Assembly (NCBI GenBank): GCA_036522835.1
Contig: DATDFB010000057.1
Location: 3,906 to 67,905 of the forward strand
DNA length: 64,000 nt
From: Thermoanaerobaculia bacterium
GTDB lineage: Bacteria; Acidobacteriota; Thermoanaerobaculia; Gp7-AA8
Direction: 5' to 3'
The stretch's first letter is position 1. Each line of letters starts with the position of its first letter. Shown here piece by piece: positions 16,310 to 56,723 of this stretch. A model generated the notes under the pieces. The model was given only the letters and a program-made list of their open reading frames with translations, was not told the origin of the DNA and made no database searches. Both the position numbers and the translations under genes were made by a program.

Positions 16310-16330
16310 GGCGCGTTACGCCCGCATACC

Positions 16331-16427: not shown

Positions 16428-16446
16428 GGGCCGAAAGCAGGCGAGC

Positions 16447-18400: not shown

Positions 18401-18479
18401 GTGTCATTCCGAGCCGCGAAGACGGCGAAGAATCCCGTGCCTGCCGGCAGGGGGTCCCTCGCTCCGCTCGGGATGACAC
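18401..18479. repeat. Palindromic repeat family A, full copy (intergenic)
   Basis: gtgtcattccgagccgcgaagacggcgaagaatcc...ctcgctccgctcgggatgacac. Confidence 0.8.
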
Positions 18480-19816: not shown

Positions 19817-19926
19817 GGAAAATTAGAACGCAGAATGCGAATGCAGAATGAAGAAAACGGAGTCCGTTGGCCAAGGCGCTCCGGTTTTCTCAATTCTGCA
19901 TTCGCATTCTGCGTTCTGAATTTCCT
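19814..19926. repeat. Palindromic repeat family D, full ~113-bp copy
   Basis: Same termini as the 16331 copy, with a longer central loop. Confidence 0.85.
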
Positions 19927-19930
19927 TGAT

Positions 19931-23822: not shown

Positions 23823-24520
23823 CCTGGTTCCACGAATGGTTCGGCGAGGAGTACCTCGCGCTCTACTCGCATCGTGACGACGACGAGGCGAGGCAGCAGG
23901 TCGTCTTCTTCAAAGAGCATTGCGGCGCCGTGCGCGGGCCGCTCCTCGACCTCGCCTGCGGCAAGGGGCGGCACATCGCCGAGCTGCGCGCCGCCGGCTA
24001 TGGCGCGGTCGGCTGCGACCTCTCCTTCACGCTGCTGCGCACCGGCCGCGCCGAGTACGGGCCGCTCCCGGTGGCGCGCGCGGACATGCGCGCGCTGCCG
24101 TTCTGCACGGCGGGCTTCGCCGGCCTGGTGAGCTTCTTCACCTCGTTCGGGTACTTCTCGGTTGAGGAGGAAAACGTGGCCGTCGTACGCGAGATGGCGC
24201 GCGTGCTGGAAAAGGGGGCGGTGTTCCTCTTCGACTACCTGAATCTGCACCGGGAGCTGGAGAAACTGGTGCAGCGCGAGACGCGCGGCGACGTCACGAT
24301 CGAGCGCTGGTTCGACTCGCAGGACCGCTCGTTCAACAAACGGATAACAATCGGACAAAAGCGCTACCTGGAGCGCGTTCGCGGATACGATCTCGACGAG
24401 ATCTCGATGATGTTCACGACGGCGGGCCTGACGATTCGCGCCGCGTTCGGCGATTTCCTCGGTGCGCCGTTCGAAATGAGCTCGCCGCGGCTGATCGTGC
24501 TGGGGACGAAGAATCGATGA
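23819..24520 (+). CDS. class I SAM-dependent methyltransferase
   Basis: SAM motif I LLDLACGKGRH. Post-I acidic residue. TTG start overlapping the mglA stop. Confidence 0.7.
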   Translation: MTWFHEWFGEEYLALYSHRDDDEARQQVVFFKEHCGAVRGPLLDLACGKGRHIAELRAAGYGAVGCDLSFTLLRTGRAEYGPLPVARADMRALPFCTAGFAGLVSFFTSFGYFSVEEENVAVVREMARVLEKGAVFLFDYLNLHRELEKLVQRETRGDVTIERWFDSQDRSFNKRITIGQKRYLERVRGYDLDEISMMFTTAGLTIRAAFGDFLGAPFEMSSPRLIVLGTKNR

Positions 24521-32157: not shown

Positions 32158-32211
32158 GGGCGCACGGCGTGCGCCCTCAGCGTCCGGGCGCACGCCGTGC
32201 GCCCCTACCTG
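32153..32211. repeat. Palindromic repeat family C, full two-arm copy
   Basis: cggtaggggcgcacggcgtgcgccc...gggcgcacgccgtgcgcccctacctg. Confidence 0.8.
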
Positions 32212-36165: not shown

Positions 36166-37332
36166 GTGGAATTCGACATCTTCTTCTCGATCTGCCAGAC
36201 GGAGGTCGACGGGTATCTGCCCGACGAGCGAACGATGTTCGCGAATTTCTTCGAGCAGGTCGAGCTCGCCGACCGTCTCGGCTTCGGCACGGCGTGGGTG
36301 GCGGAGAGCCATCTTTCGACCGAGGTGCAGAAGACCAATCCCGGCGCGGTCATTCCGCACTTCGTCGGGGAGATCGGGCTCAACACCGACATCCTGCAGC
36401 TCGCGCACCGCGTCTTCGCGCGCACGAAGCGGATCGGCGTCGGCTCAGCGATCCTGAACATCCTCTGCAACGGCGGGCCGATTGCGCATGCGGAGCGGAT
36501 CAAGACGTTCCTGGCTTTGCACGGGCTCGACCCCGAGGAGCGGCGCACGCTGACGATCGGCTTCGCCTCGGGGCGCTTCCCGTTCATCAACGTGCCGTAC
36601 GGCGTCGTGCCGCGGAATCCGGTCGAGAGCGCGGCGTGGCCCGTGGTCAAGAACAAGATTTTCGAAGAGGCGACGGAGATTTTTCTCCGCCTGCTCAAAG
36701 GGGAGACGCTCAACTCGACGATGATCGCCCCGCGCGTGCTGCGGCGCGGCGACTTCCGCTCCGAGGAGGACTGGCAGCGCGTGCTCGAAGCGCACGGGCA
36801 GTACGTCGACGACGTGCCGCTCGCGCCACGCTGGACGTTCCCGAACCTGAAGATCGTTCCGCAGGAGTCGCGCATGGACCTCCTGCGACTCTCCATCGGG
36901 TCGCACGACCCGGCGCTGCAGGCGTTCGCGAACACGTTCCTGCCGGTCGGCGTCTTCAATCTCTCCATCACGCCGGGAAAAGAGATCGAGGAGACGAACC
37001 GTCGGATGCTGACGCAGTACCACGGCGGCGGATGGGAGCGGCGCCTCATGCCGCGCACGGTGCTCGTTTTTCCGAACGAGGCGGAGGCGACGACGGCGCT
37101 CTCGAACTACTGGCGCGCGCTGGAGGGGACGCTCGACGAGGAAAAGGTGCGCCGGGCCACGAACAACGCGCTCGTCGGCGACGCCGGGACGATCGCGCGG
37201 CAGATGCGGGAACGCTTCGATCCCGCGGACCGTTTGATGCTCTGGTTCGACTTCAACAACCACGACTCCAAGCGCGTGATGCAGAGCATGGACGACTTCA
37301 TGACCAAGGTGGCGCCGAGCTTCGCCGGATGA
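36166..37332 (+). CDS. LLM-class (luciferase-like) flavin-dependent oxidoreductase
   Basis: MEFDIFFSICQ...LGFGTAWVAESHL typical LLM N-terminus. 388 aa. Confidence 0.78.
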   Translation: MEFDIFFSICQTEVDGYLPDERTMFANFFEQVELADRLGFGTAWVAESHLSTEVQKTNPGAVIPHFVGEIGLNTDILQLAHRVFARTKRIGVGSAILNILCNGGPIAHAERIKTFLALHGLDPEERRTLTIGFASGRFPFINVPYGVVPRNPVESAAWPVVKNKIFEEATEIFLRLLKGETLNSTMIAPRVLRRGDFRSEEDWQRVLEAHGQYVDDVPLAPRWTFPNLKIVPQESRMDLLRLSIGSHDPALQAFANTFLPVGVFNLSITPGKEIEETNRRMLTQYHGGGWERRLMPRTVLVFPNEAEATTALSNYWRALEGTLDEEKVRRATNNALVGDAGTIARQMRERFDPADRLMLWFDFNNHDSKRVMQSMDDFMTKVAPSFAG

Positions 37333-39167
37333 TCCGCCGCACGCTGCTGCTCTTCGCCGCCAATCTCGTGCTCTTCACGCTGCTGCGGGTGGCGTTTCTC
37401 CTGGTCTTCGGCCATCGCCTGGCCGGGAACGATCTTCTGCGCGCCTTTTACCTCGGATTGAAATTCGACGCGCGGCTGGCGGCGCTGGTCGTCGCGCCGA
37501 TCGCGATTTTCGGCACGCGCCGCGCGGCGACGATCGTCTTCGCAATCTTCGAGCTCATCGTCCTCCTCTGCTACGCCATCGACTTCGGCTCGTACGCGTA
37601 CGTCCACCAGCGCGTGAACGCCAGCGAGCTGGAGTTCCTCCGCAATCCGCTGATCTCGCTGCACATGGTGTGGGAGTCGTACCACGTCGTCTGGTTCGGG
37701 CTGGGCATCCTGCTGTTCCTCGCGGCGCTCGTGTTCGCGCTGCGCGGCGGCGACGTGTCATCCCGAGCGCAGCGAGGGATCCCCCGCGACCCGCTCTGGC
37801 AGCGCATCGCCCTCATCGTCTTTCTTCTGGCGTGCATCTACGGCAAGGCCTCGCGCTACCCGCTGCGCTGGAGCGACGCCTACGTCGCACGCGATCCCTT
37901 CGCCGCGGAGCTCGCGCTCAACCCGCCGCAGTTCCTCTTCGAGACGATGCGCGAGGAGCCGGTGAAGCTCGACGAGAACCGCGTGCGGCGGCTCTACCCG
38001 GTCATGGCCGCGTATGCCGGAGTCGATCGCCCCGATCCGAAATCGCTGTCGCTGGCGCGCACGCCGAGGCTCTTTCCGCAGACCACCGGGGCGCCCAACG
38101 TCGTCGTCATCCAGCTCGAGTCCTTCGCGGCGTTCAAGAGCGGCGCGTTCGGCAACCGCGCCAACGGCTGCCCGAACGTCGACCGCCTGGCGCGCGAGGG
38201 GCTGCTCTTCACGAACTACTACTCCCCCTCGGAGAAGACCGCGCGCGCGCTCTATGCCGCCGTCTTCGGCATGGCCGACGTGAGCCCGTGGCAGGCCGCC
38301 GGCAACAACCCCATGGCGGTCGACCAGTACACGATCATCAACGCCTTCCGCGGCTACGAGAAGTATTTCTTCCTCGGCGGGAGCGCGAACTGGTCGAACA
38401 TCCGCGGGATGCTCGCGCACAATATCGACGGACTGAAGATCTTCGAGGAAGGCTCGTACAAAGCGAAGCCGGTCGACGTCTGGGGCGTGACGGACGAAGA
38501 GGTGTTCCTCACGGCGAGCGACGAGCTCTCGAAACAGCGCAAGCCATTCTTCGCGCTGATCCTGACCTCCGGCAATCACCGCCCCTACACCGTGCCGAAG
38601 GAGACGCACGGCTACGCGCGCGAGATCCTGTCGAACGAAGACCTGCGCGCGAACGGCTTCGAGTCGAACGACGAGTACAACTCCTTCCGCTACCTCGACC
38701 ACGCCGTCGGCCTCTTTTTCGAGAAGGCCGAGAAGGAGCCGTGGTTCAAGAACACCGTCTTTGTTCTCTACGGCGACCACGGCACGCGCACCGGCGCGCC
38801 CGGCGAAGCGCTCACGCTCGGCGACCTCTCGCTCATCGTCTACCACGTGCCGATGATCATCTACGCGCCCGGCTTCAACGTGCCGCCGCGCAGGATCGAC
38901 ATCGCCGCGAGCCACATGGACCTGATGCCGACGATCGCGAGCTTTTGCGGAGTGCCGTACCGCAATCAGACGCTGGGCATCGATCTCTTCGATCCGAATT
39001 CCGCCGGACACTCGGCAGCGTTCGTTTTTACAACGTTTCGCCAGCCGCCCACCCTCGGCCTGGTCGAAGGCGCGCGCTACACGATCGTAAAATCGGGGAC
39101 GAGCAACACCCTTCCGGAAGCGTTTTATGAGTTTTCTCGTTGGCTGATGCTGCACAATAAACCGTAA
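37329..39167 (+). CDS. LTA-synthase / sulfatase-family (alkaline-phosphatase superfamily) polytopic membrane enzyme
   Basis: ATGA overlap with the LLM gene. N-terminal 5 TM helices, then sulfatase-domain motifs VVVIQLESF...YSPSEKTARALYAAV...GDHG. Contains an in-frame family-A repeat arm. Confidence 0.78.
   Translation: MIRRTLLLFAANLVLFTLLRVAFLLVFGHRLAGNDLLRAFYLGLKFDARLAALVVAPIAIFGTRRAATIVFAIFELIVLLCYAIDFGSYAYVHQRVNASELEFLRNPLISLHMVWESYHVVWFGLGILLFLAALVFALRGGDVSSRAQRGIPRDPLWQRIALIVFLLACIYGKASRYPLRWSDAYVARDPFAAELALNPPQFLFETMREEPVKLDENRVRRLYPVMAAYAGVDRPDPKSLSLARTPRLFPQTTGAPNVVVIQLESFAAFKSGAFGNRANGCPNVDRLAREGLLFTNYYSPSEKTARALYAAVFGMADVSPWQAAGNNPMAVDQYTIINAFRGYEKYFFLGGSANWSNIRGMLAHNIDGLKIFEEGSYKAKPVDVWGVTDEEVFLTASDELSKQRKPFFALILTSGNHRPYTVPKETHGYAREILSNEDLRANGFESNDEYNSFRYLDHAVGLFFEKAEKEPWFKNTVFVLYGDHGTRTGAPGEALTLGDLSLIVYHVPMIIYAPGFNVPPRRIDIAASHMDLMPTIASFCGVPYRNQTLGIDLFDPNSAGHSAAFVFTTFRQPPTLGLVEGARYTIVKSGTSNTLPEAFYEFSRWLMLHNKP
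37755..37790. repeat. Palindromic repeat family A, single-arm (solo) copy inside the sulfatase-family gene
   Basis: gtgtcatcccgagcgcagcgagggatcccccgcgac, encoding VSSRAQRGIPRD in frame. Confidence 0.7.
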
Positions 39168-39176
39168 TCGCAAACG

Positions 39177-39206
39177 ACAGCGGCGGCATGGCCGCCGCAC
39201 TCCACA
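39177..39206. repeat. Palindromic repeat family B, single-arm copy immediately upstream of the hflX start codon
   Basis: acagcggcggcatggccgccgcactccaca, followed directly by ATG. Confidence 0.75.
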
Positions 39207-40460
39207 ATGCCTGAAACTGCCATCGCCGTAGGACTTCTCCTGCCGGACACATCGCGTACCGTCGCCGACGAGCACCTCGACGAGCTCGAGAAACTGATCG
39301 AGACGGCCGGCGGCAACGTCGTCGCCAAAATGCTGGCCCGCCGCCCCGCGCCCGATCCCGCCACCTTCGTCGGCAAGGGGAAGGCGGAAGAGATCAAGGT
39401 CATCGCCGAGAATCACGGCGCGCAGCTCGTGGTCTTCGACGACGACTTGAGCCCCGCGCAGGTGCGCAACCTCGAGAAGATCACGGGCGTCAAGGTCATC
39501 GACCGCAGCGGCCTCATTCTCGACATCTTCGCCGGCCGCGCGCGCAGCCGCGAGGCGCGCACGCAGGTGGAGCTGGCGCAGCTCGAGTACACGCTGCCGC
39601 GCCTCACCCGCGCCTGGACGCACCTGGAGCGGCAGGCCGGCGGCATCGGCACGCGCGGCGTCGGCGAGACGCAGATCGAGCTCGACCGCCGCATCATCCG
39701 CAACCGCATCGCCCACCTCAAAGAAGAGCTGCGCAAGATCGAGCGGACGCGCGTCACGCAGCGCAAGGCGCGCAGCAGCGCCTTCACCGTCGCGCTGGTC
39801 GGCTACACGAATGCCGGGAAGTCGACGCTCTTCAACCAGCTCACGCGCGGCGGCGCCGAGGCGGTCGACAAGCTGTTCGCCACGCTCGATGCGAAGTCGC
39901 AGCGCGCCGCGTTCGAGATGCCGCGCGAGACCGTCGTCATCGACACCGTCGGCTTCATCCGCAAGCTGCCGCACAACCTCGTGGCCTCGTTCCGCTCGAC
40001 GATGGAGGAGGCGGTCGCCGCCGACCTCGTGCTGCACGTCATCGATGTGAGCCATCCACAGTACGAAGAGCAGCGCACCGTCGCCGAGGAAGTGTTGAAA
40101 GAGCTCGGCGTGCCGGCGGAGCGGGTCATGGAGGTCTACAACAAAGTCGACCGCGCCGAGACCATGATCCGCCGCAAGGGCGCCGTCGGCGTGTCCGCGC
40201 TGACGGGGCGGAACATCGACAAGCTGGTCGATGCCATCCGGCAGCGCGAGCTCGAAGGCGGCGAGGTCGTGCAGCTCGAGATCCCGCACTCCGAGCCGAA
40301 GCTCCTGGCGGAGCTGCACGAGACCGCGGTGGTGTACGCGCAGACGGCATCCGACGACATCACGGCCGTCACGGCGTGGCTGCCGTTCGAGGTCCTGCCG
40401 CGATTCACCGAGTACCGGCGGCCCGACGTGGCCGCCGCCGCGCGCGCGACGCTCAGGTGA
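39207..40460 (+). CDS. hflX: GTPase HflX
   Basis: HflX N-terminal domain, then G-domain motifs GYTNAGKSTL, DTVGF, NKVD. Confidence 0.9.
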   Translation: MPETAIAVGLLLPDTSRTVADEHLDELEKLIETAGGNVVAKMLARRPAPDPATFVGKGKAEEIKVIAENHGAQLVVFDDDLSPAQVRNLEKITGVKVIDRSGLILDIFAGRARSREARTQVELAQLEYTLPRLTRAWTHLERQAGGIGTRGVGETQIELDRRIIRNRIAHLKEELRKIERTRVTQRKARSSAFTVALVGYTNAGKSTLFNQLTRGGAEAVDKLFATLDAKSQRAAFEMPRETVVIDTVGFIRKLPHNLVASFRSTMEEAVAADLVLHVIDVSHPQYEEQRTVAEEVLKELGVPAERVMEVYNKVDRAETMIRRKGAVGVSALTGRNIDKLVDAIRQRELEGGEVVQLEIPHSEPKLLAELHETAVVYAQTASDDITAVTAWLPFEVLPRFTEYRRPDVAAAARATLR

Positions 40461-41577
40461 TCGTGCGCAAGCGGTCGTTGATGACGCGCGTCCGCCCGCC
40501 GGCGTTGATGCGCAGCTCGAGACCCGGCTTGCCGTCCAGATCGGACGCGCCGAGGTACGTCCATGCCGCGCCGGCCGTGTAGGTGAAGCTCGATCCGTCG
40601 GCATCGTGGTAGATGTCGATGGCGCTTCCCACGTTGAACACGAGATCGTTGCCGGGCCGCCCATCGGTGTCGACGGCGTCGACCAGCGTCCACCCTTTCG
40701 TGCTGACGAGGTGGCTCGTCACGGTGCCGCCGGCGTCGTGAATGATGCGAACGGCCGATCCGATGTTGAGAATCAGCTCCGCGCCCGCCTTGCCGTCGAG
40801 ATCGGCGGCGCGCATGAACTTCCACGAGCTGCCGCCGTCGTAGTCCCTCGACGCGCCCGTGCCGGCGTGAACGATCCGGATTTTGGAGCCGAGATTCAGC
40901 ACCAACTCCGCGCCCGGCAGTCCGTCGAGCTCCGCCGAGGTGACCAACGCCCACGCCGGCCCGAGAGCCGGAAAATCGACGACGCTGTTGCTGCCGTCGC
41001 GGATCACGCGGAGCGTCGATCCGAGATTCACCGCCAGCTCGGCGCCCGGCTTCCCGTCGAGCTCCGCGATCGTGACGACCGTCCAGACCGGGCCGAGATT
41101 CGCAGTATCGCTCGAGGTGCCGGCCGCGTCGTGAATGATGCGGATCGTCGAGCCGAGGTTCAGCACGAGCTCCGCGCCGGCTTTGCCGTCGGTATCCACC
41201 GTGGCGATCAGCTTCCACGCCGCCGCCGCGTTGTAGTCCTGCATCTTGCCGGTCGCGTCGCGGATCACGCGGATCTTCGCGCCGAGATTGAGCACGAGCT
41301 CCAGGCCGGGTCGGCCGTCGAGATCGGCCGCGCCCGCGAAGGCCCACCCGGCGCCGGCGGCGTACGTGTTCGACGTTCCGTTCGCGCGCTGCACGCGGAT
41401 CGTGGCGCCCTCGTTGAAGACCTTCTCGGCCGCACCGTCGCCGTTCGTGTCCCAACTGCCCATCAGGATGCTGCCGGCAGCCATGGCATCCGAGGCGAGG
41501 AGAAAGAGGGTCAGGAGCCGGAGAAACCGCATCGAAACTCCTGTCGTTTCGTACAGATGACGTCGCGCGCGGCCCAA
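40453..41577 (-). CDS. secreted beta-propeller-like protein with ~8 tandem FG-GAP-like repeats
   Basis: Repeating DLDGKPGAELVLNLGSxIRIIHDAxGT unit of ~37 aa (111 nt at DNA level). Signal peptide MRFLRLLTLFLLASDAMAAG. The true start is possibly Met16. Confidence 0.6.
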   Translation of the reverse strand: MGRARRHLYETTGVSMRFLRLLTLFLLASDAMAAGSILMGSWDTNGDGAAEKVFNEGATIRVQRANGTSNTYAAGAGWAFAGAADLDGRPGLELVLNLGAKIRVIRDATGKMQDYNAAAAWKLIATVDTDGKAGAELVLNLGSTIRIIHDAAGTSSDTANLGPVWTVVTIAELDGKPGAELAVNLGSTLRVIRDGSNSVVDFPALGPAWALVTSAELDGLPGAELVLNLGSKIRIVHAGTGASRDYDGGSSWKFMRAADLDGKAGAELILNIGSAVRIIHDAGGTVTSHLVSTKGWTLVDAVDTDGRPGNDLVFNVGSAIDIYHDADGSSFTYTAGAAWTYLGASDLDGKPGLELRINAGGRTRVINDRLRTIT

Positions 41578-42873: not shown

Positions 42874-43070
42874 GCAGAACGCTCGCACTCTGCCAACGCT
42901 CGGGAGAACGACCGGGAGGCCTCCGGCGGGCGGGCACGGCCCGCAGCGTTTGTTGGCGCGCAAATCATGTTTCCTGCGAAACCCGTACGTTCGGCCGGAG
43001 GCAACCAGCGCTGCGGGCCGCGCCCGCCCGCCGGAGGCCCTTCGTCGTCCCCTGCGTTGGCAGAGTGCGA
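42867..43070. repeat. ~205-bp nested inverted repeat (MITE-like element or structured leader) filling the intergenic region upstream of hemA
   Basis: Outer 26-bp perfect inverted repeat gcagaacgctcgcactctgccaacgc (42867-42892) / gcgttggcagagtgcgagcgttctgc (43045-43070). Inner inverted pairs ggcctccggcgggcgggc / gcccgcccgccggaggcc and cggcccgcagcg / cgctgcgggccg. Confidence 0.8.
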
Positions 43071-43092
43071 GCGTTCTGCACGGGAGGGCGAC

Positions 43093-44355
43093 ATGGCCCT
43101 GATCGCCATCGGCCTCAACCACCGCACTGCCCCCGTGGACGTGCGCGAGCGGCTCAGCGTGGCCGAGTCGAAGCTGCCGGAGTTGATCGCGAGCCTCACG
43201 GCCATGAGCGGCGTCGACGGCGGCGCCATCGTCTCGACCTGCAACCGCGTCGAGACCTACGTCTCCGCCTCGAGCGAAGACATCATCGAAGCGGTCGTCG
43301 ACTGGCTCGCCGAGCGCGCCGGCGCCGACCGGGCCGAGATCGAGAAGCACCTCTACATCCTTCGCCACGGCGACGTGGTCAAGCACCTCTTCCGCGTGGC
43401 CGCGGGGCTCGACTCGATGATTGTCGGCGAGCCGCAGATCCACGGCCAGGTGCGCGCGGCGTTCCTGGAGTCGCAGCGCTGCGGCGCGCTCGACGCACTG
43501 CTGATGCACGTCTTCGAGCAGACCATGCGCGTGGCCAAGAAGATCCGCACCGACACCGGCATCGGCGAGCACGCCGTCTCCGTGCCGTACGCCGCGGTGG
43601 AGCTGGCGAAGAAGATCTTCGGCGAGCTCGACGGCCTGCAGGCGCTGCTCCTCGGCGCGGGCGACATCGGCGAGCTAACGGCGGAGCACCTCGCGGGCTC
43701 GGGTGTGCGCCAGATCTTCGTGGCCAACCGCGCCTACGAGCGCGGCGTGCAGCTCGCCGAGCGCTTCGGCGGCGCGGCCATCCAGTTCAGCGCTGTCGAG
43801 CCGTACCTGGCCACGTGCGACATCGTCATCGCCTCGACCGCAGCGCCGCACTTCGTCATCGAGCGCGGCCAGGTCGCGCGCGCGCTGGAGTCGCGGAAGA
43901 TGAAGAACCTCTTCCTCATCGACCTGAGCGTGCCGCGCAACATCGACCCGGCCATCGCCAAGGTCGAGGGCGCCTATCTCTACAACATCGACGACCTCCA
44001 GCTCGTGGCCGAGTCGAACCGCGAGCTGCGCATGAAGAAGGCCCAGCAGGCGGAGGAGATCGTGGCGCGCGAGGTGGAGTCGTTCCGCCGCCGCATCGCC
44101 GCCATGGACGCGGTGCCGACGATCGTCGAGCTGCAGCAGCGCCTCGAGGAGATCCGCGCCACGGAGCTGGAACGGTGCCTCCGCCGCGTCGGCCCGATCA
44201 CCGCCGAGCAGCGCGAGGCCATCGAGATGATGACCACGCAGATGGTCAACAAGATCCTCCACTACCCGATCCTCCAGCTCAAGGAAGCCGACGAGCCGCA
44301 GGAGCAGCGCGAGTCGCTCCGCAAGACGATTCGAAAGATCTTCGGGCTGCGATGA
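43093..44355 (+). CDS. hemA: glutamyl-tRNA reductase
   Basis: MALIAIGLNHRTAPVDVRERL...GEPQIHGQV canonical HemA. The ORF-track start at 42967 lies inside the inverted repeat and is unlikely. Confidence 0.9.
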   Translation: MALIAIGLNHRTAPVDVRERLSVAESKLPELIASLTAMSGVDGGAIVSTCNRVETYVSASSEDIIEAVVDWLAERAGADRAEIEKHLYILRHGDVVKHLFRVAAGLDSMIVGEPQIHGQVRAAFLESQRCGALDALLMHVFEQTMRVAKKIRTDTGIGEHAVSVPYAAVELAKKIFGELDGLQALLLGAGDIGELTAEHLAGSGVRQIFVANRAYERGVQLAERFGGAAIQFSAVEPYLATCDIVIASTAAPHFVIERGQVARALESRKMKNLFLIDLSVPRNIDPAIAKVEGAYLYNIDDLQLVAESNRELRMKKAQQAEEIVAREVESFRRRIAAMDAVPTIVELQQRLEEIRATELERCLRRVGPITAEQREAIEMMTTQMVNKILHYPILQLKEADEPQEQRESLRKTIRKIFGLR

Positions 44356-45356
44356 GCGAGACAATCCGCATCGGCACGCGCGGCAGCCAACTCGCGCTCT
44401 GGCAAGCCAACGAAGTGTCGAACCGGCTCAGCGAAATCGGCTACCGGCCGGAGATCGCGGTCATCAAGACGACGGGCGACAAGCGCACCGACGTGCCGCT
44501 GTCGTCGGTCGGCGGCAAGGGCCTCTTCATCAAGGAGCTCGAGGAGGCGCTGGCGCGGCGCGAGATCGATGTGGCCGTGCACTCGCTCAAGGACGTGCCG
44601 TCGCTCGTCCCCGAGCCGTTCGTGCTGGCCGGCTTCCTCGAGCGCGCCGACGCCCGCGACGCCTGGGTGCAGCTCGACGGCACGCGCATCGAGGAGCTGG
44701 CTGCAGGCGCGGTCGTCGGCACGAGCGCGCCGCGGCGGCGCGCGCAACTGCGGCTGCTCTTTCCGTCGCTCACGCTCGAGGAGATGCGCGGCAACGTCGA
44801 CACGCGCATCAATAAACTGCGCGCCGGCTTGTACGACGGCGCGGTGCTGGCGTCGGCCGGACTCATTCGACTCGGCCGTTCCAGCGAGATCACCGCGCAG
44901 TTCGACGTCGACCAGATGGTGCCGGCCGCGGGGCAGGGCATCGTCACGATCGAGTGCAACAAAGACGACGATCGCGCGCGCCAGGCCGCCGCGGCGATCA
45001 ACCACCATCCCAGCGAGGCCGCGGCGCGCGCCGAGCGCGGCGTGCTGCAGAAGTTCGGCGAGGCGCTCGACTGCTACTCCGCCGTGGCCGTGCATGCGAC
45101 GTGGGCCCGTGTCATTCCGCGTCGCGAAGACGGCGAGGAGTCCCGTGCACACGACGACGGCGATGCTCCGTCGGCAGGAGATCCTTCGCCGTCTTCGCGG
45201 CTCGGGATGACACGTCTCAAGATCCGCGCGTTCTTCGGCGAGCTCGAAGGCGAGCGCCATTTGCACGTCACGCGCGAAGGCGACGAGGCCGACGCCGTCG
45301 TGCAGCAAGTCTTCGACGAGCTCGTCGACCGCGGAGCCATGGAGCTGCTCAAGTGA
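44352..45356 (+). CDS. hemC: porphobilinogen deaminase (hydroxymethylbilane synthase) carrying an in-frame repeat insertion
   Basis: ATGA overlap with hemA. IRIGTRGSQLALWQA N-terminus. Contains a ~35-aa insertion (RVIPRREDGEESRAHDDGDAPSAGDPSPSSRLGMT) encoded by a family-A repeat. Confidence 0.88.
   Translation: MSETIRIGTRGSQLALWQANEVSNRLSEIGYRPEIAVIKTTGDKRTDVPLSSVGGKGLFIKELEEALARREIDVAVHSLKDVPSLVPEPFVLAGFLERADARDAWVQLDGTRIEELAAGAVVGTSAPRRRAQLRLLFPSLTLEEMRGNVDTRINKLRAGLYDGAVLASAGLIRLGRSSEITAQFDVDQMVPAAGQGIVTIECNKDDDRARQAAAAINHHPSEAAARAERGVLQKFGEALDCYSAVAVHATWARVIPRREDGEESRAHDDGDAPSAGDPSPSSRLGMTRLKIRAFFGELEGERHLHVTREGDEADAVVQQVFDELVDRGAMELLK
45109..45214. repeat. Palindromic repeat family A, full copy inserted in-frame within hemC domain 3
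   Basis: gtgtcattccgcgtcgcgaagacggcgaggagtcc...cgccgtcttcgcggctcgggatgacacg. Confidence 0.8.
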
Positions 45357-47062: not shown

Positions 47063-50000
47063 ATGCCATACGAATGCCAGTCAGGCTTGGACGCCGCCGC
47101 CCTCAGCTACACTCCGCGCGTGCCGCGCGTCCTCAAAGCCTCGCTCTGGCTGGCCGCCTTCTTTTTCGCCTGCGGTATTTTCCTCGGCACGACGCAACTG
47201 CTTCGGGCCGTGCCGCCGACGCCGCACGTGGCCGTGGGGCGGGTGACGGTCGAGAACGCGTCGAAGCTGCGCGAGTACCTCACGGCGCTCCTCTTTTTCG
47301 TCCTCGTCCCGCCGCTGACGATCGGCCTCTATCGGCTCGGCTCCCGGCAGCTCGAGCGGTTTCCCGGCACCCTTCCCTCGGCACTCTTCGTCGCGCCATT
47401 TTTCCTCGCGCCGTTCCTTTATCTGACGACGTTCAAGTGGGGCTGGCCGCTCATCATCCCGCTCGCGGCGTCGCAGCTCGGCCCGCGCGCGCTGCTGCTC
47501 TTCCGGCGCACGCGCTGGCTGCGACAGCTCCTGGCGATGAAAGCGTTCAACGCCCTCATCGCCGCCGAGGCGCTGGCGTGGATCCTCTTCTTCTACATCG
47601 GCACGTGGCACCGCATCGCCCACATCGCCACGCTCTTTCTCGAGATCGTCTTCGTCGGCTTCTTCATCGCCCTCTTCTGGTGCGCCTTCGCCCTGATCGC
47701 GCGGATCGCCTCGTTCACCGGCGGCATCGACATCGAGGTCGCGTTCCAGAGAGTCGCCGCCGGCGCGCTGCCGCTGATCATCCTGCCGGCGCTCGGCCTT
47801 CGCTTCGTCCCGGCGCACATCGCCATCTCCACGGTCATGGCCGTGACGTTCGCGACGATCGCGATGGTTCTGCAAGGCAAGGAGCCGGTCGATGCGAGGC
47901 GCGTCCGCAACGTCACCGCGTACGTCATCTTCCCGCTCCTCCTCTATTGCGTCAGCTACGCCTCGACCGCGGCGCTCTCGCAGTGGATCGACCTCTTCCA
48001 CCGCGGCGAGTCGCTCGGCCCAGCCTTCGACTACCTCCGCGGCAAAGTCCCGTACCGCGACGTCTTCGTCCTGCACGGCCTGCTCGAGGACGGCCAGCTC
48101 GACGCCTGGCTCTTCCAGCTCTTCGGCCGCAATGCCGGCATCGCCCTGGCGCGGCCCGTGATCCTAGGCTCGTTCGCCGTGCCGGCGCTCTGGTACGTCG
48201 GCATGGCCATCTTCGACTCGATCCCGCTCGCGGCGCTGGTGATGCTCCTCGGGGCCGTGACAACGGTCGACAACGAGCGCGAGTTGTGGGAGATCCTCGT
48301 CCTGGCGCTGCTCCTCGGCGCGCTGCGGCGGAAATCGAAAATGCTCTATGTCCTCAGCGGCGTCGCCGCCGGCGTCACGCTCTTCTTCAGCTTCGACATC
48401 GGCCTCTACTCGATCGCCGGCGGCTTGATCGTTTGTGGAGTGCGGTGGCCACGCCACCGCTCTGACAGCGGCGGCATGGCCGCCGCACTCCAGATCTTCG
48501 GCATCGCGATCGGCACCGCACCGTTCATCGCATATCTGGCGAGCAAAGGTGCCGTTAAAGCCTTCTTCGAAACCTCCTTCGTCACGATCCCGCGAATCAT
48601 CGACGCCGTCTGGTCGCTCCCCTTTCCCGACCTCACCTCCACGTTCCGCAGCAAGAATCTCAACCTCCACACACTCTCCGACTTTTTCCTCTACGAGCAC
48701 TTCCGCTACATCCTCAATCCGCTCGTCATCTGCCTGGCCATTCTGGTGCTGCTGTGGCGGCGCAAGCGGTGGGAGTGGATCGACACCGCCCTCTTCGCGC
48801 TCACGATCTTCGCCGTCCTCACCCAGCGCAGCGCGTTGGGCCGCGCCGACTTCCCGCATCAATACTTCTCCGCGTTTCTCATCGGCCCGATGATCCTCAT
48901 CCTCCTCGTGCTTCTCGCGCGGGCGGGGCAGTGGTCGGTGGCGCTGCTCGTGCCGCTGCTCGCCGTCGTGCTGTGGGTGCCGGACATCGCCAACGGCCGC
49001 ATCGACGACACCTGCCACTACCAGGGCCGCGTCAGCGGCACCATTCGCGACCCGAAGGCGGAGGAGGTGCGCAACCGCATCGACGCCGTGCGCTACTGGG
49101 TCTGGCAGCACAGCAAGCCGAATCAGCCGATCTTCGACTTCTCGAACCAGCCGGCGCTCTACTTCTTCTGCGAGCGGCCGAATCCGACGCGCTTCTACCA
49201 GGTGCCGATCCTCTCGCCGCCGGCGCTGCAGCGCGAGACGATTCTGGCGCTCGAGCGCGCGAAGCCGCCCGTCGTCATCCGGCGCTCGCCGCAGGAGTTC
49301 GACGTCTTCGACGGCATCGACAACGCCATCCGCGCGCAGGCCGTGGCCGCGTATCTCGACGACTTCTACGTCTTCGCCCACACCACGCGCGGCGTCGAGG
49401 TGTGGGTGCGCAAGGCGCCGGCGCCGCAGCTCAATCTCGCCGGTTACATGCGCCGCTACCGCATCCCCACGCTCGAGGAGCTCGGCACGATCGGCGGGCG
49501 CTCGCGCGTCGTCTTCCCGACCGTCGGCACCGTGCCGGGCGTCGGCGGTGCGTACTGGCGCTCCGATTTGATGCTGCACAACCCGTGGAAGGAGACGATC
49601 TCGCTCGACCTCCGTTACGTCGCCGGCGACGTCCGCGCGCACCGCAACGTCATCCTAGGCGCCGGGCAGAGCATCGTCTGGCCCGACGTCGTACGCACGT
49701 TCTTCGGCGCGCCGGAGAGCCGCGGGGTGCTGTGGATCGAGTACCGCGGCACGAACGCGCCCGTCGCGCGGGTGAAGACGTCCGATGTCGCGCACGAGGC
49801 GAAGGCGACGATCGACGCGCCGCTGACGCTCGCCGGCTCCGCGACGGCCGGGACGCCGAGCGACGACCTGACGATTTTCGGCCTCCCCTCGACGAAGGAC
49901 CGGCGGATCAACATCGGCATCGTGAACGTCGGCGCGATTCCGGCCACGTTCCGCATCACGGCGCGCTCGCGCACCGGGCAGCCGATCGGCAGGCCGATCG

Positions 50001-50188
50001 AGGAAGGGCTGGCCGAGGACGAGTCGTACACGCTGACCGACCTCGAGTCGCAGTTGCGCGCGCGGCTCGATGAGACGACGAGCGTGCACGTCGGCGTCGT
50101 GGCCGGGACGTGCATCGCCTACGCGACGGTCGTCGACATCAACGGCGACACGCAGTTCATCGCCGCGCTGCCGTCGCAGCAGCCATGA
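47063..50188 (+). CDS. large polytopic membrane protein (~1041 aa) with C-terminal extracytoplasmic beta-rich domain; function unknown
   Basis: At least 12 TM helices in the first ~650 aa. Soluble C-terminal ~400 aa. Start at first plausible ATG (47063); a downstream GTG is an alternative. Contains an in-frame family-B repeat. Confidence 0.5.
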   Translation: MPYECQSGLDAAALSYTPRVPRVLKASLWLAAFFFACGIFLGTTQLLRAVPPTPHVAVGRVTVENASKLREYLTALLFFVLVPPLTIGLYRLGSRQLERFPGTLPSALFVAPFFLAPFLYLTTFKWGWPLIIPLAASQLGPRALLLFRRTRWLRQLLAMKAFNALIAAEALAWILFFYIGTWHRIAHIATLFLEIVFVGFFIALFWCAFALIARIASFTGGIDIEVAFQRVAAGALPLIILPALGLRFVPAHIAISTVMAVTFATIAMVLQGKEPVDARRVRNVTAYVIFPLLLYCVSYASTAALSQWIDLFHRGESLGPAFDYLRGKVPYRDVFVLHGLLEDGQLDAWLFQLFGRNAGIALARPVILGSFAVPALWYVGMAIFDSIPLAALVMLLGAVTTVDNERELWEILVLALLLGALRRKSKMLYVLSGVAAGVTLFFSFDIGLYSIAGGLIVCGVRWPRHRSDSGGMAAALQIFGIAIGTAPFIAYLASKGAVKAFFETSFVTIPRIIDAVWSLPFPDLTSTFRSKNLNLHTLSDFFLYEHFRYILNPLVICLAILVLLWRRKRWEWIDTALFALTIFAVLTQRSALGRADFPHQYFSAFLIGPMILILLVLLARAGQWSVALLVPLLAVVLWVPDIANGRIDDTCHYQGRVSGTIRDPKAEEVRNRIDAVRYWVWQHSKPNQPIFDFSNQPALYFFCERPNPTRFYQVPILSPPALQRETILALERAKPPVVIRRSPQEFDVFDGIDNAIRAQAVAAYLDDFYVFAHTTRGVEVWVRKAPAPQLNLAGYMRRYRIPTLEELGTIGGRSRVVFPTVGTVPGVGGAYWRSDLMLHNPWKETISLDLRYVAGDVRAHRNVILGAGQSIVWPDVVRTFFGAPESRGVLWIEYRGTNAPVARVKTSDVAHEAKATIDAPLTLAGSATAGTPSDDLTIFGLPSTKDRRINIGIVNVGAIPATFRITARSRTGQPIGRPIEEGLAEDESYTLTDLESQLRARLDETTSVHVGVVAGTCIAYATVVDINGDTQFIAALPSQQP
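48433..48493. repeat. Palindromic repeat family B, full two-arm copy in-frame inside the large membrane-protein gene
   Basis: tgtggagtgcggtggccacgccaccgct...agcggcggcatggccgccgcactccaga, encoding CGVRWPRHRSDSGGMAAALQ. Confidence 0.8.
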
Positions 50189-50736
50189 TCGAGCTCGCGT
50201 TGCCCTGGGGCGATCGCGCCATCGCCATCCGCGACGTCGACGATCCGGAATCGTGGCTGCGCGGAGACGAGCTCGCGGTCGCGCGCGCCTTCCCGCGCGA
50301 GAAGCGCAGACAGGAGTGGATGCTCGCCCGCGCCGCTGCGAAAGTGCTCGCGCGCCGCCGCGGCCTCGGCGACATCGCCGTCGAGCGCCCGCTCGTGTCG
50401 GTCTCGCACTCAGGCCCGTGGGCCGCGGCGGCGATCGACACGATGCCGGTCGGCATCGACATCGAAGTCGTGCGCGACGTCAGCGAGCGCGCCGCGCGGC
50501 ACTTCCTTACCGAGGAGCAGATCGCGCAGATGGAGTCATGCACGATTCCGCATCGCCTGCTGCACTTCTGGTGCGCAAAGGAGGCGGCATGGAAGCGGCT
50601 GTGCGGCTCGATTCCGTTTCTGAAAGGCGTCCCGCTGACGCTTCTGGAGTGCGGCGGCCATGCCGCCGCTTTCGATTCCGTGGAGACGATCGAGCTCGGC
50701 GGCGTCGTCGTCGCCCTCACGCGCCCCACTTCTTGA
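50185..50736 (+). CDS. 4'-phosphopantetheinyl transferase (Sfp/EntD type)
   Basis: ATGA overlap with the upstream membrane-protein gene. GIDIE and FWCAKEAAWK PPTase motifs. In-frame family-B repeat arm near the C-terminus. Confidence 0.7.
   Translation: MIELALPWGDRAIAIRDVDDPESWLRGDELAVARAFPREKRRQEWMLARAAAKVLARRRGLGDIAVERPLVSVSHSGPWAAAAIDTMPVGIDIEVVRDVSERAARHFLTEEQIAQMESCTIPHRLLHFWCAKEAAWKRLCGSIPFLKGVPLTLLECGGHAAAFDSVETIELGGVVVALTRPTS
50644..50670. repeat. Palindromic repeat family B, single-arm copy in-frame inside the PPTase gene
   Basis: ctggagtgcggcggccatgccgccgct, encoding LECGGHAAA. Confidence 0.75.
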
Positions 50737-51915: not shown

Positions 51916-51980
51916 TGCGGAGTGCGGCGGCCATGCCGCCGCTGTAACAGCGCCGGCATGGCCGGCGCACTCCACATGCG
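51916..51980. repeat. Palindromic repeat family B, full copy; its right terminus contains the fmt start codon
   Basis: tgcggagtgcggcggccatgccgccgctgtaacagcgccggcatggccggcgcactccacATGcg. Confidence 0.8.
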
Positions 51981-52836
51981 CCTGCTTTTTTTCGGAACCC
52001 CGCAATTCGCCGTGCCGACACTCGAGGCCATCGCGCGCGAGCACGAGGTCGTGCTCGTCGTCGCGCAGCCCGACAAGCCCGCGGGCCGCGGCATGCATCT
52101 GCAGGCTCCCGCGGTGGTCGTGCGCGCGCGCGAGCTTGGGCTGCCGGTGGCGCAGCCGCCGAAGATCCGCGACTTCGCGCCGCCCGCGGCCGAGGCGGCG
52201 ATCGTCGTCGCGTACGGAAAGATCCTGCCGGCGGCGCTGCTCGCCACGATGCCGTTCTACAACGTGCACGCGTCGCTGCTGCCGAAGTACCGCGGCGCGG
52301 CGCCGATCCAGCGTTCCATCGAGCACGGCGAAGCGGAAACGGGCGTGACGATCATGCGCATCGACGAGCAGCTCGATCATGGGCCGACGCTGCTGGCTGC
52401 GTCGACGGCAATCGACCCCGATGAGCATTCGCCGGGGCTCGGCTCCCGGCTTTCGGCTCTCGGCGCGGATTTGATGCGGCGGGTGCTGCGCGAGCGGCCG
52501 GCCGAGGTCGAGCAGGACCACGCGCGGGCCACGCTCGCGCCGAAGATCGACAAGGAGGAGGGACTCGTCGACTGGAGCGCCCCGGCGCGGGCGATCTACG
52601 ACAAGTTCCGCGCCTTCGATCCATGGCCCGGGATTTTCACGGACACGATGAAGTTGATCGACGTCGCGCCGGCTTCCGGCCAGGGCGCGCCGGAAAGCAT
52701 CCTCGCCATCGACGACGGCGTCGTCGTCGCTTGCGGCGAGGGCGCGCTGCGCGTGCGCACGATCCAGCGCGCGGGAAAGCCGCGCGTGAACGCCGCCGAC
52801 GTGGCGCGCGCGGAACGCTGGCGCGTCTTCCCATGA
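51976..52836 (+). CDS. fmt: methionyl-tRNA formyltransferase
   Basis: MRLLFFGTPQFAVPTLEAI...NVHASLLPKYRGAAPIQRSI canonical Fmt. Confidence 0.9.
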   Translation: MRLLFFGTPQFAVPTLEAIAREHEVVLVVAQPDKPAGRGMHLQAPAVVVRARELGLPVAQPPKIRDFAPPAAEAAIVVAYGKILPAALLATMPFYNVHASLLPKYRGAAPIQRSIEHGEAETGVTIMRIDEQLDHGPTLLAASTAIDPDEHSPGLGSRLSALGADLMRRVLRERPAEVEQDHARATLAPKIDKEEGLVDWSAPARAIYDKFRAFDPWPGIFTDTMKLIDVAPASGQGAPESILAIDDGVVVACGEGALRVRTIQRAGKPRVNAADVARAERWRVFP

Positions 52837-53984
52837 ACGAGCGCCAGCGCGCGCTGCACCTCCTCCGCCGCATCGAGCGCGAGCAGGCGTTTGCCGCGCC
52901 GCTTCTGGCCCAGGAATCCGGCTTCGTCCGCACGCTCGTCCTCGGCGTGCTGCGCTGGCGCTCGCGTCTCGACTTCGCCGTGTCGGCACACGCGAAACGA
53001 AAAATCGACGATCAAGTCCTCGATGTCCTCCGCCTCGGCGCGTACCAACTGCTCTTCATGGACATCGCCAAGTACGCCGCCGTCGCGGAGACAGTGGAGC
53101 TCGCGCCAAAGCATGCGCGCGGCTTCGTCAACGCGATGCTGCGGCGCGTGACGGACGTCGAGCCCAAAGATCTCGCCACCCGCACCGCCCACCCCCCCTG
53201 GCTGATCGCGCGCTGGGTGCGCCACTACGGCGAGGAGCGCGCCGCGCGCATCGCCGCCGCGAATCAGGAGCTGTCGTATCCGGACGTGATCGCGAACGAG
53301 CCGCCGCCCGAGGCCACGCCGTCCGAGCTCGTCCCCGGCATGTGGAAGCTGCATGGATCCTCCGCCGACGTCGAAGGCATCGTTCTCGACGAAGGAAGCG
53401 CGGTCATCGGCGACCTCGCCGCGGCGACGTCAAACGACATTCTCGACCTCGCCGCCGCGCCGGGCGGGAAGAGCATCGTCGCGGCGCTGCGCGGGGCGCA
53501 TGTGGTGAGCAACGATGTCTCGATTGGACGGCTGCTCGGCGGGCGCATGCTATGCGCCCCTACCGGTAGGGGCGCACGGCGTGCGCCCCTCGTTGTCTCC
53601 GACGCGCGGCAACCGCCGTTCCGAAGAACGTTCGACACCGTCCTCCTCGATGCGCCGTGCAGTGCCACCGGCACGATCCGCAAGAATCCGGAGCTGAAGT
53701 GGCGTCTGCGCGAGGAGGACCTGCCGTCGTTCGCGAAACTGCAGCGCGAGATGCTGGAAAGCGCCGTGCGCCTCGCAAAACGCTACGTCGTCTACTCCAC
53801 CTGCTCTCTCGAGCCCGAAGAAAACGACGAAGTCGTGAACGGATTCGAACGGGAAGACGCGGCGGGCTTCGTCAACGATAACGTCCGCCGCTGGGTCGAA
53901 GACGGCGTGCTCCGCCTCACGCCCGAGTCGGGCGCGGACGGCTTCACCGCGTTTGTGCTAAGAATTCCGCCCCATGCCGCGTGA
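52833..53984 (+). CDS. rsmB: 16S rRNA (cytosine-C5)-methyltransferase RsmB/Sun family, with in-frame repeat insertion
   Basis: ATGA overlap with fmt. NusB-like N-terminus. ILDLAAAPGGKS SAM motif, DAPCSATG catalytic motif. Family-C repeat encodes MLCAPTGRGARRAPL between the motifs. Confidence 0.82.
   Translation: MNERQRALHLLRRIEREQAFAAPLLAQESGFVRTLVLGVLRWRSRLDFAVSAHAKRKIDDQVLDVLRLGAYQLLFMDIAKYAAVAETVELAPKHARGFVNAMLRRVTDVEPKDLATRTAHPPWLIARWVRHYGEERAARIAAANQELSYPDVIANEPPPEATPSELVPGMWKLHGSSADVEGIVLDEGSAVIGDLAAATSNDILDLAAAPGGKSIVAALRGAHVVSNDVSIGRLLGGRMLCAPTGRGARRAPLVVSDARQPPFRRTFDTVLLDAPCSATGTIRKNPELKWRLREEDLPSFAKLQREMLESAVRLAKRYVVYSTCSLEPEENDEVVNGFEREDAAGFVNDNVRRWVEDGVLRLTPESGADGFTAFVLRIPPHAA
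53546..53593. repeat. Palindromic repeat family C copy in-frame inside rsmB
   Basis: gcatgctatgcgcccctaccggtaggggcgcacggcgtgcgcccctcg. Confidence 0.78.
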
Positions 53985-56067: not shown

Positions 56068-56373
56068 ATGGCAGGAAAAGGTGACGTCATCAACGAGATC
56101 GCCGACCAGGCTGGGATCTCGAAGAAGGAAGCGGCCGCAGCGTTCGACGCATTCGTCAGCTACATCTCCGGCTCGTGCCAGCGAGGCGAGCGCTGCTCGA
56201 TCCCAGGGCTCGGCAGCTTCTCCGTCTCGCAGCGCAAGGCGCGCGAGGGCCGCAACCCCCGCACGAACGAAAAGATCACCATCCCGGCATCGAAGAACGT
56301 CCGCTTCAAGGCCGGCAAGGACCTCAAGGACGCCGTAAACGTTTCCGGTAAGCGGGGGTCGAAGAAGAAGTAG
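56068..56373 (+). CDS. HU family DNA-binding protein with Lys-rich tail
   Basis: MAGKGDVINEIADQAGISKKEAAAAFDAF...RNPRTNEKITIPASKNVRFKAGKDLKD, the typical HU/IHF fold sequence. Confidence 0.85.
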   Translation: MAGKGDVINEIADQAGISKKEAAAAFDAFVSYISGSCQRGERCSIPGLGSFSVSQRKAREGRNPRTNEKITIPASKNVRFKAGKDLKDAVNVSGKRGSKKK

Positions 56374-56446: not shown

Positions 56447-56690
56447 GTTCGCAGGTTGTTACGTTCTTCACCGATCGAAGAGCGCACGCTTCCGATCGAA
56501 GAACGAACGCTTCAATCGGAATCGTGCGCTCTTCGATTTTAATCGTACGCTCTTCGATCTTTATCGCGCGCTCTTCGATCTTTATCGCGCGCTCTTCGAT
56601 CGGAATCGCGCGCTCTTCGATCGGAATGGCGCACTCTTCGATCGGAATCGTGCGTTCTTCGGTTGCAAGCGTGCGTTCTTCGAAAACAAC
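56447..56690. repeat. Tandem repeat array, ~21-23 bp unit (GCTCTTCGATCGGAATCGCGC consensus), ~9-10 copies; first two units in inverted orientation
   Basis: Successive units gctcttcgattttaatcgtac / gctcttcgatctttatcgcgc (x2) / gctcttcgatcggaatcgcgc / gctcttcgatcggaatggcgca / ctcttcgatcggaatcgtgcgt and so on. Preceded by inverted units gatcgaagagcgc. Flanked by AAGAAC-type motifs. No unique spacers, so not CRISPR. Confidence 0.8.
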
Positions 56691-56723
56691 CTAAGAACTC
56701 AACAACTTAACAACCGGATCACC

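Follow-up and report, generated by a model that had tools for sequence, protein, structure and literature searches.

Palindromic repeats lie in frame within conserved genes of an uncultured soil Thermoanaerobaculia bacterium, as in Rickettsia

Introduction

Rickettsia palindromic elements (RPE) were reportedly described by Ogata et al. in 2000. In-frame palindromic insertions are the hallmark of these elements, RPE-1 to RPE-10 (summarized in PMC10969869 and PMC3733652). Here, we analyze a 64,000-nucleotide (nt) stretch of DNA (the window) from the metagenome-assembled genome of a Thermoanaerobaculia bacterium (assembly GCA_036522835.1, contig DATDFB010000057.1, positions 3,906 to 67,905), an uncultured, free-living soil Acidobacteriota of ~67% GC (64-70% in the window). 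Palindromic repeats are dispersed in this window, and copies of them lie in frame within intact genes, including hemC (hydroxymethylbilane synthase). An earlier note on this DNA had listed seven such sites and likened the repeats to RPE. A repeat copy is indeed present in an open host frame at all seven, and the likeness holds, with in-frame palindromes in intact conserved genes forming lineage-specific peptide segments.

Palindromes within genes have also been described elsewhere. According to Di Nocera et al. 2013 (PMC3733652), intragenic repetitive extragenic palindromic (REP) sequences tagged with GTAG or CGTC occur in several phyla, are most numerous in Opitutus terrae (Verrucomicrobia) and R. 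conorii, are tolerated by virtue of falling in loops or linkers, and show a bias toward repair genes. The event is therefore less novel than the earlier note implied. REP doublets forming hairpins (REPIN), of the system that includes REP-associated tyrosine transposases (RAYT), have been described as extragenic and vertically inherited (PMC3116915). Finally, a 2024 review lists in-frame fusions of miniature inverted-repeat transposable elements (MITE) in other bacteria, i.e. ERIC, Correia, QMITE1, and cyanobacterial MITEs (PMC10969869).

Results

A 105-nt palindrome within an intact hemC gene

The hemC gene encodes an intact protein of 334 amino acids (aa), with matches to Pfam Porphobil_deam (E = 1.9e-77) and to HemC entries in the PDB (E = 1e-57). 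Between the conserved segments VAVHATWA and RLKIRAFFG, where the earlier note had correctly seen ~35 extra residues, lies a near-perfect 105-nt hairpin (45109-45213), with ends GTGTCAT...ATGACAC and an RNA minimum free energy of -78 kcal/mol (z = -8.0). Read in frame, the hairpin corresponds to the 35 aa RVIPRREDGEESRAHDDGDAPSAGDPSPSSRLGMT (approximately residues 253-287), for which the predicted tryptic peptides, junction included, are EDGEESR, AHDDGDAPSAGDPSPSSR, and LGMTR. HemC homologues usually have 298-303 aa. The 22 nearest clusters (P0002-P0023), which are 82-87% identical to the window protein where aligned, have 300 aa (306 in P0015) versus 334 in the window, and they read HATVNG[HR]V[KT]IRAFFG at the position of the insert.

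At the DNA level, the site is empty in the syntenic loci that were compared (L001/L002, L003/L004, and L129). The closest relative is L129, in which the 1041-aa membrane protein discussed below is ~92% identical at the aa level, followed by L001 and L003 (~83-85%). The junction was aligned by eye on codons; the gap was misplaced by MAFFT. The composition of the insert is foreign to the gene, with a GC content at third codon positions (GC3) of 0.60 versus 0.91 in the remainder. The insert is present in three other metagenome assemblies (L008-L010), which are 99.90-99.98% identical to the window over 7.8-18.3 kb with zero indels, and it is therefore not an assembly artefact.

In alignments with solved HemC structures, the insert falls in the turn of the domain-3 hairpin, between ...AELIDGE and IWLRALVG in E. 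coli. An AlphaFold model of the window protein, computed from 62 sequences (mean predicted local distance difference test (pLDDT) 87; predicted template modeling score 0.83), places it between strands 245-254 and 286-296, with residues 263-279 at pLDDT <50. As modeled, the insert lies at the tip of a β-hairpin, a permissive location. Cofactor residue Cys241 and the other invariant columns are unchanged, and the stop/start codon overlaps of the hemA-hemC-cobA/hemD operon are intact. A promoter/terminator scan around hemC revealed neither a T tract nor a promoter-like site at the element, which is therefore not an intrinsic terminator.

Four families of palindromic repeats

Repeat and inverted-repeat searches showed that the window contains at least four families of GC-rich palindromic repeats (A to D). 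As assessed with up to three mismatches and 100 shuffles, the arm of family A (GTGTCATYCCGAGCCGCGAAGACGGCGA...) has five matches versus 0.00 expected, family B (GGAGTGCGGCGGCCATGCCGCCGC) has eight versus 0.02, and family D (GTAGGGGCGCACGGCGTGCGCCC) has seven versus 0.00. No Rfam family matched anywhere in the window at gathering thresholds.

Whole family A elements in the window are 79-105 nt long, with arms GTGTCATYCCGAGCCGCGAAGACGGCGARGAATCCC and termini GTCAT...ATGAC. The arms, 36-46 nt long, are terminal inverted repeats. A single arm does not form a hairpin when folded as single-stranded DNA (z = -0.7), the whole element does (z = -6.5), and with its long inverted arms family A is MITE-like. 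The family B unit, TGGAGT-GCGGCGGC-CAT-GCCGCCGC-T, is found either alone or paired in inverted doublets of 57-61 nt. The family D unit, G-GTAG-GGGCGCA-CGGCG-TGCGCCCC, has a 9-bp stem with the classical 5' GTAG tag and also occurs as singlets and doublets. The tag of family B is GGAG, and families A and B carry neither GTAG nor CGTC. Because their single units fold alone as single-stranded DNA hairpins (z = -4.4 for B and -3.7 for D), families B and D are REP-type units. One inverted family D doublet (32153-32209) has 24-nt arms that are 100% complementary and a fold of -61 kcal/mol.

Family C is a long hairpin based on GAATGCAGAATGC. Families A, B, and D are open in four to six of the six frames. 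In contrast, two of the three family C copies (16329-16429 and 19814-19928) contain stops in four of the six frames, the third (4723-4804) being stop-free, and none of the three is inside a coding sequence (CDS). The earlier note had placed families A, B, and C within CDSs. This is correct for A and B, whereas what it called C is probably our family D.

We catalogued 16 copies in the window, six of which are in CDSs (hemC, rsmB, bshC, and the genes for a membrane protein, a sulfatase, and a phosphopantetheinyl transferase (PPTase)), one overlaps the 3' end of purE, and nine are intergenic (Table 1). The copies within CDSs add or replace 8-35 aa and leave the reading frame unbroken.

Other host genes

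The coding map was drawn from codon-position GC, Pfam scans of ~50-60 open reading frames (ORF), and gene calls on public copies of the contig, and it led to corrected limits for several ORFs (Table 1). All host frames are uninterrupted, and GC3 periodicity is strong both before and after each insert. In one 20-kb syntenic stretch, five of 14 genes carry repeat copies. Outside hemC, alignments suggest where in the protein each insert would be sited.

In rsmB, the family D doublet (53541-53593) is read LGGRMLCAPTGRGAR... between NDVS and VVSDA, i.e. between the S-adenosylmethionine (SAM)-binding segment and the downstream DAPCS motif, as the earlier note had proposed. The window has 19 residues between ...SIGRL and VVSDA where L001, which lacks the insert, has four (net +15 aa), and the Methyltr_RsmB-F match (residues 196-341) runs over it as one unbroken stretch. 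In L129, the start of a family B element stands at the same codon position. This L129 site (13310-13334) opens the element (TGTGGAGTGC; …TTCCTGTGGAGTGC) before the contig ends.

The membrane protein copy proved to be in frame, as claimed. It is a family B doublet read (C)GVRWPRHRSDSGGMAAALQ / CGVRWPRHRSDSGGMAAALQ, which adds 14 aa. L129 has the same doublet and L003 lacks it, and in L001 the site is taken by another palindrome, ~100 nt long, whose termini are similar.

For the other four genes, what the earlier note had claimed stood in part. In the sulfatase gene, the copy is in frame but is not a complete element: it consists of the left arm only (GTGTCATCCCGAGCGCAGCGAGGGATCCCC, 37755-37790) and is read VSSRAQRGIP. 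At the same codon, L003 has a full 75-nt element with a left arm identical to that of the window, and L001 has none. The window copy is probably an older insertion that was later trimmed in frame. In the PPTase gene, an in-frame family B unit (26 of 26 positions matching the reference arm) is read (L)ECGGHAAA(F), but there is no net insertion, the protein having the same length as its orthologues. ECGGHAAAF replaces the AETPASLLF-type sequence of most homologues, L129 included. The same patch is found in L003, P0241, and P0242 and is absent from L129 (10460-10486), a distribution that may reflect parallel gain, reversal, or recombination. In bshC, a family D unit is likewise in frame, read (S)VGAHGVRP, and lengthens a hypervariable linker by only ~1 aa. 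Four near relatives have this unit, and in others the linker holds other peptides of repeat type, e.g. TLCAPTGRGAQ and GGQALLPVP. In purE (Pfam AIRC), the element does reach the last codons, but the overlap is a trivial 12 nt at the 3' end, three codons (VSS) plus TGA (2333-2335), the remainder of element 2324-2404 being intergenic. Downstream of purE, the only available in-frame ATG (2397) of the cation diffusion facilitator (CDF) transporter gene (Pfam Cation_efflux) is within the right arm of this family A element (GGAATGACAC), which may thus supply the start codon and 5' leader of the transporter gene.

Another start codon is affected in fmt. A family B doublet runs right up to ATG 51976 (MRLLFFGTPQFAV), and the start has been misplaced to 51958, within the repeat, in public gene calls and to 51922 in a mechanical ORF. 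This case shows that the repeats cause N-terminal mis-annotation.

Recurrent insertion in hemC and spread of family A

Among 120 listed clusters of HemC homologues, 110 could be scored for the length of the hairpin segment, which is 13-14 residues in 104 and 19-75 residues in six. DNA for three of the six long-loop genes (L005, L006, and L007) showed a palindrome at the loop in each, two being family A variants and the third an unrelated double hairpin. Counting the window, the loop has thus undergone at least four independent events. In L006 (1309-1560), two family A left arms flank a second copy of a 21-aa host segment (AVLRKFGAPLDLYSGAGVNAS, copied from GVLQKFGTLLDCYSAVGVHAV), which suggests that the repeat mediated the duplication.

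Among GTDB representative genomes, at least 118 stretches (L011-L128) contain the exact family A 26-mer GTCATYCCGAGCCGCGAAGACGGCGA, some of them in contigs >1 Mb. The hosts include Thermoanaerobaculia, Acidobacteria gp7, and many Verrucomicrobiota (Chthoniobacterales, Udaeobacter, Spartobacteria), together with one Hyphomicrobiales bin, possibly a binning error. Elements are typically ~70-105 nt long in Thermoanaerobaculia and mostly ~85-180 nt in Verrucomicrobiota, in which the arm is extended by GGGACCTC. An identical 26-mer in two phyla implies either horizontal spread or a very strong constraint on the arm. Both ends could be defined in 100 copies, and none of these is flanked by a target-site duplication; some flanks prolong the palindrome. 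Within the limited sampling of the 118 loci, there was no autonomous copy with an internal ORF, and the only arm pair in the 0.4-4-kb range, with arms 488 nt apart, encloses no ORF.

Only two of 108 usable copies in these other genomes lie deep within a CDS. These copies, being exact 26-mer matches, are young, and the classifier, validated on the window, is conservative, missing copies less than ~240 nt from a gene end, such as those in bshC and the PPTase gene. Both in-frame copies (L068, 2556-2676; L109, 3423-3525) are in Thermoanaerobaculia-type genomes, one in mfd, at the boundary between the UvrB-interaction domain and RID, and the other in a 618-aa acetyltransferase, where it separates the two GNAT domains. 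In each, the VIPSREDGEGS frame is read, as in hemC. This hydrophilic type of frame is used by four independent in-CDS family A copies (hemC, P0033, L068, and L109), the sulfatase copy being read in another.

Comparison with described systems

As a behavioral class, the window repeats resemble RPE. Several palindromic families are dispersed in multiple copies, and a sizeable fraction are in frame and stop-free in intact, unrelated metabolic genes (six hosts). Compared with orthologues, the inserts are lineage-specific in hemC (+35 aa), rsmB (+15 aa), the membrane protein gene (+14 aa), and the sulfatase gene (variable among three relatives), but not in the PPTase gene (0) or bshC (+1 aa). Their positions are compatible with the fold, as seen in the HemC model and in the continuous Pfam match of RsmB. 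The orthologue comparison suggested in the earlier note thus came out in its favor, with the hemC and rsmB segments missing from syntenic relatives, the hemC segment at the tip of a β-hairpin, and motifs undisturbed. On the other hand, the host is a free-living soil Acidobacteriota of 67% GC rather than a reduced, AT-rich, intracellular alphaproteobacterium, the elements are GC-rich and 24-105 nt long, including single REP units, whereas RPEs are ~100-150 nt long, and some copies are length-neutral patches.

Family D, a GTAG-tagged hairpin of 23-25 nt occurring as singlets and dimers, resembles the REPs of Di Nocera et al. and falls within their size range of 20-40 nt. In that paper, intragenic dimers encode ~15-20 aa in known proteins, presumably in loops or linkers, as here, and the family A copy in the repair gene mfd in another genome echoes the repair-gene bias noted there. 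In contrast, families A and B lack GTAG/CGTC tags. In the available part of the paper (PMC3733652), Acidobacteria appear only for the TIRYT genes of Koribacter versatilis, and neither reuse of one loop by different families nor length-neutral patches are described.

Inverted hairpin doublets with a short spacer (32153-32209, 5915-5975, 51918-51974, and 48436-48492) recall REPINs (Bertels and Rainey 2011, PMC3116915), as do the non-autonomous nature of the elements and the absence of target-site duplications; the family D doublet at 53541-53593 is a further inverted dimer. Unlike in that system, there is no RAYT gene among the window ORFs, copies are intragenic, and family A is common to two phyla. 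Family A is also similar to bacterial MITEs, with long terminal inverted arms, a size of 80-175 nt, no coding capacity of its own, and occasional in-frame fusions. It differs from them in lacking target-site duplications (100 copies) and a parent insertion sequence (IS) with matching ends (118 loci).

Table 1. Repeat copies and genes of the window.
Feature	Coordinates	Strand	Context or product
Family A, 105 nt	45109-45213	+	in hemC
Family A, 81 nt	2324-2404	+	between purE and CDF transporter gene
Family A, 79 nt	18401-18479	+	intergenic, long left and short right arm; flanked by cyclase gene and LigB/L-PSP gene
Family A variant, left arm alone	37755-37790	+	in sulfatase CDS
Family B doublet (two inverted REP-like hairpin units)	48436-48492	+	in membrane protein CDS
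Family B single unit	50645-50670	+	in PPTase CDS
Family B doublet	5915-5975	+	intergenic
Family B single unit	39179-39204	-	intergenic, sulfatase stop (39167) to hflX start (39207)
Family B doublet	51918-51974	+	abuts fmt start codon (ATG 51976)
Family D single unit	24618-24641	+	in bshC CDS
Family D doublet, units back to back	53541-53593	+	in rsmB CDS
Family D inverted doublet (REPIN-like)	32153-32209	+	intergenic, between proS and FadL-type gene
Family C long hairpin	4723-4804		intergenic; other copies 16329-16429 and 19814-19928
hemA	start 43093		420 aa
hemC	44352-45356	+	hydroxymethylbilane synthase; 334 aa, intact
PPTase gene	50185-50736	+	183 aa; Pfam ACPS
rsmB	52833-53984	+	383 aa; Pfam Methyltr_RsmB-F
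Membrane protein gene	47063-50188	+	1041 aa
Sulfatase-family gene	37329-39167	+	612 aa; Pfam Sulfatase
bshC	24517-26004	+	
Cyclase gene	17773-18396	-	Pfam
LigB/L-PSP gene	18485-19816	-	Pfam
HU-family gene	56068-56373		

Discussion

The repeats are probably non-autonomous, GC-rich palindromic mobile elements of the REP/MITE type, which survive within genes when they land in permissive loops. Families B and D would be REP-type hairpins, found as singlets and inverted doublets (REPIN-like), and family A a MITE-like element of 80-105 nt. Such elements would insert chiefly into intergenic DNA, and the enzyme that moves them is most likely supplied in trans from another part of the genome. Because of the GTAG-hairpin architecture of family D, the doublets, and the lack of target-site duplications, we infer that this enzyme is a RAYT- or IS200/IS605-like Y1/HUH transposase that acts on hairpins in single-stranded DNA. 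Since they are GC-rich, the elements are open in four to six of the six frames, and the minority that land in permissive sites with a net length divisible by three would leave the gene active. Candidate sites of this kind in the window are the tip of a β-hairpin, a linker between domains, and a loop that connects membrane segments. These copies would be translated as extra loop residues and would persist as passengers with little or no effect on fitness, until they are eroded by in-frame deletion, as in the sulfatase half element, or overwritten. The inter-domain siting of the two outside family A copies (in Mfd and the double-GNAT protein) fits such permissive locations. The low proportion of outside copies within CDSs (2 of 108) and the restriction of family C, stop-rich in two of its three copies, to intergenic DNA are in line with a purifying filter.

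Several observations weigh against this explanation. Pfam scans of the ~50-60 window ORFs revealed no transposase, a search limited to 64 kb of the genome, and no RAYT/IS200-type gene was found in these 64 kb, so that the mobilizing enzyme is purely postulated. The tag of family B, GGAG, is neither GTAG nor CGTC. The long arms of family A, which resemble terminal inverted repeats, would also suit a MITE mobilized by a DDE transposase; MITEs of that type normally leave target-site duplications. Translation of the inserts and activity of the host enzymes are predicted. The window has a far larger intragenic fraction (6 of 16) than young family A copies elsewhere (~2%, as scored by a conservative classifier). 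The distribution of the PPTase patch conflicts with genome relatedness, and for the length-neutral PPTase and bshC copies, simple insertion would need an exactly compensating deletion.

These two length-neutral patches suggest an additional templated or recombinational route, as do the phylogenetic mismatch of the PPTase patch and the exchange of repeat families at a single site. The PPTase and bshC copies, and perhaps the family swaps, might thus have arisen by patching through gene conversion, microhomology-mediated repair, or recombination between lineages, which we regard as possible but rather unlikely. In the PPTase gene, a perfect family B unit stands in for 8-9 codons, leaves the length unaltered, and is missing from L129. 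In bshC, the unit adds only one residue to a linker in which relatives have other repeat-like peptides. In rsmB, one codon position is occupied by family D (a doublet) in the window and by family B (the beginning of an element) in L129. However, neither a donor tract nor homology in the flanks was identified, an insertion later trimmed to the original length under selection would look the same, and the case is built on two genes, whereas hemC, rsmB, and the membrane protein gene show clear net insertions with complete element termini.

Retention of the intragenic hairpins for a function, either at the RNA level (pausing, an RNase site, or differential stability within an operon) or as a new surface loop, is improbable. 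It would account for a very stable hairpin (-78 kcal/mol) within an operon of overlapping stop and start codons, for the repeated hits to the same loops across lineages, and for the VIPSREDGEGS-type frame shared by four independent in-CDS family A copies. The hemC insert is also identical in four assemblies, but since these represent one population (99.9% identical), this is uninformative on constraint. On the contrary, inserts in the same loop differ wholly between lineages, with no conserved peptide beyond the element arms, the center of the hemC insert is predicted to be disordered, 104 of the 110 scorable HemC clusters have no insert, and the hemC element carries no terminator- or promoter-like site. 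The GC3 of the insert, which has not ameliorated, suggests a recent and unselected acquisition.

That the host genes are decaying pseudogenes in which disruptions are tolerated is very improbable, and we rejected this reading on the open frames and preserved motifs. One point in its favor, the failure to detect the C-terminal HemC Pfam domain in the window protein at E<=0.001, is a feature of the lineage rather than damage, because precomputed Pfam annotation gives PF01379 alone for all listed HemC homologues, insert-free ones included. GC3 periodicity, catalytic and cofactor residues, and operon overlaps are all maintained, the RsmB match is continuous, and AlphaFold is confident for HemC outside the insert. 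Least credible of all is an ancestral segment lost in relatives or an assembly chimera. Repeats can break assemblies, and the L129 contig ends within one, but we rejected this reading since the hemC segment duplicates a dispersed repeat, complete termini included, is absent in 104 of the 110 scorable clusters, including all of the nearest, has a composition foreign to the gene, and is found without indels in four independent assemblies.

The preferred explanation, insertion of mobile palindromes into permissive loops, might be extended as follows. Tentatively, and with the odds rather against it, certain protein loops in Thermoanaerobaculia could be perpetual landing pads, to which later families home or which they overwrite, in some cases as patches that keep the length and resemble gene conversion, and family A could have crossed phyla together with its mobilizing enzyme. 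Possible examples are the hemC domain-3 hairpin, the rsmB connector between motifs II and III, the bshC linker, and the loop of the membrane protein. If so, selfish palindromes would systematically generate loop diversity in the housekeeping enzymes of soil bacteria. Recurrent hits to the same loop and an element found in two phyla make it possible to test target choice against selective filtering, and to test horizontal movement.

The type of event, known from Rickettsia, is seen here in a new lineage. What is new is the Thermoanaerobaculia lineage itself, the particular families, their density, the reuse of the same loop by different families, and the presence of family A in two phyla. RPE-like behavior, known from reduced, intracellular bacteria, thereby extends to soil Acidobacteriota that are abundant, uncultured, and free-living. 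The repeats account for many odd low-complexity peptides (VIPSREDGEGS, CAPTGRGA, and WSAAAMPPL types) in soil-metagenome proteins, for spurious ORFs, and for N-terminal extensions, the starts of hemA and fmt being mis-called owing to repeats. They also provide a natural loop-insertion scan, indicating which sites of HemC, RsmB, BshC, and other proteins are permissive.

Other repeats in the window

A 206-nt palindrome (42874-43079) that belongs to none of families A-D occupies the ccsA-hemA spacer, with arms of 59 nt (78% complementarity) and 38 nt (92%). It adds a spurious 42-aa N-terminal extension to the hemA ORF, the true start of which is 43093 because hemA products in relatives have 420 aa. 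In relatives, this spacer is 9-156 nt long and contains other repeats. On the reverse strand, a 359-aa ORF (40453-41532) consists of tandem repeats of 129-132 nt (43-44 aa); a Pfam search with it gave no convincing match. This ORF is missing from syntenic L001, L003, and L129, in which hflX is followed directly by the acetyltransferase gene. Finally, the spacer that follows the HU-family gene contains ~10 tandem 21-nt units (CTCTTCGATCGGAATCGCGCG and variants; 56471-56698); inverted partners are found at the 5' end, and the arrangement resembles a putative binding-site array.

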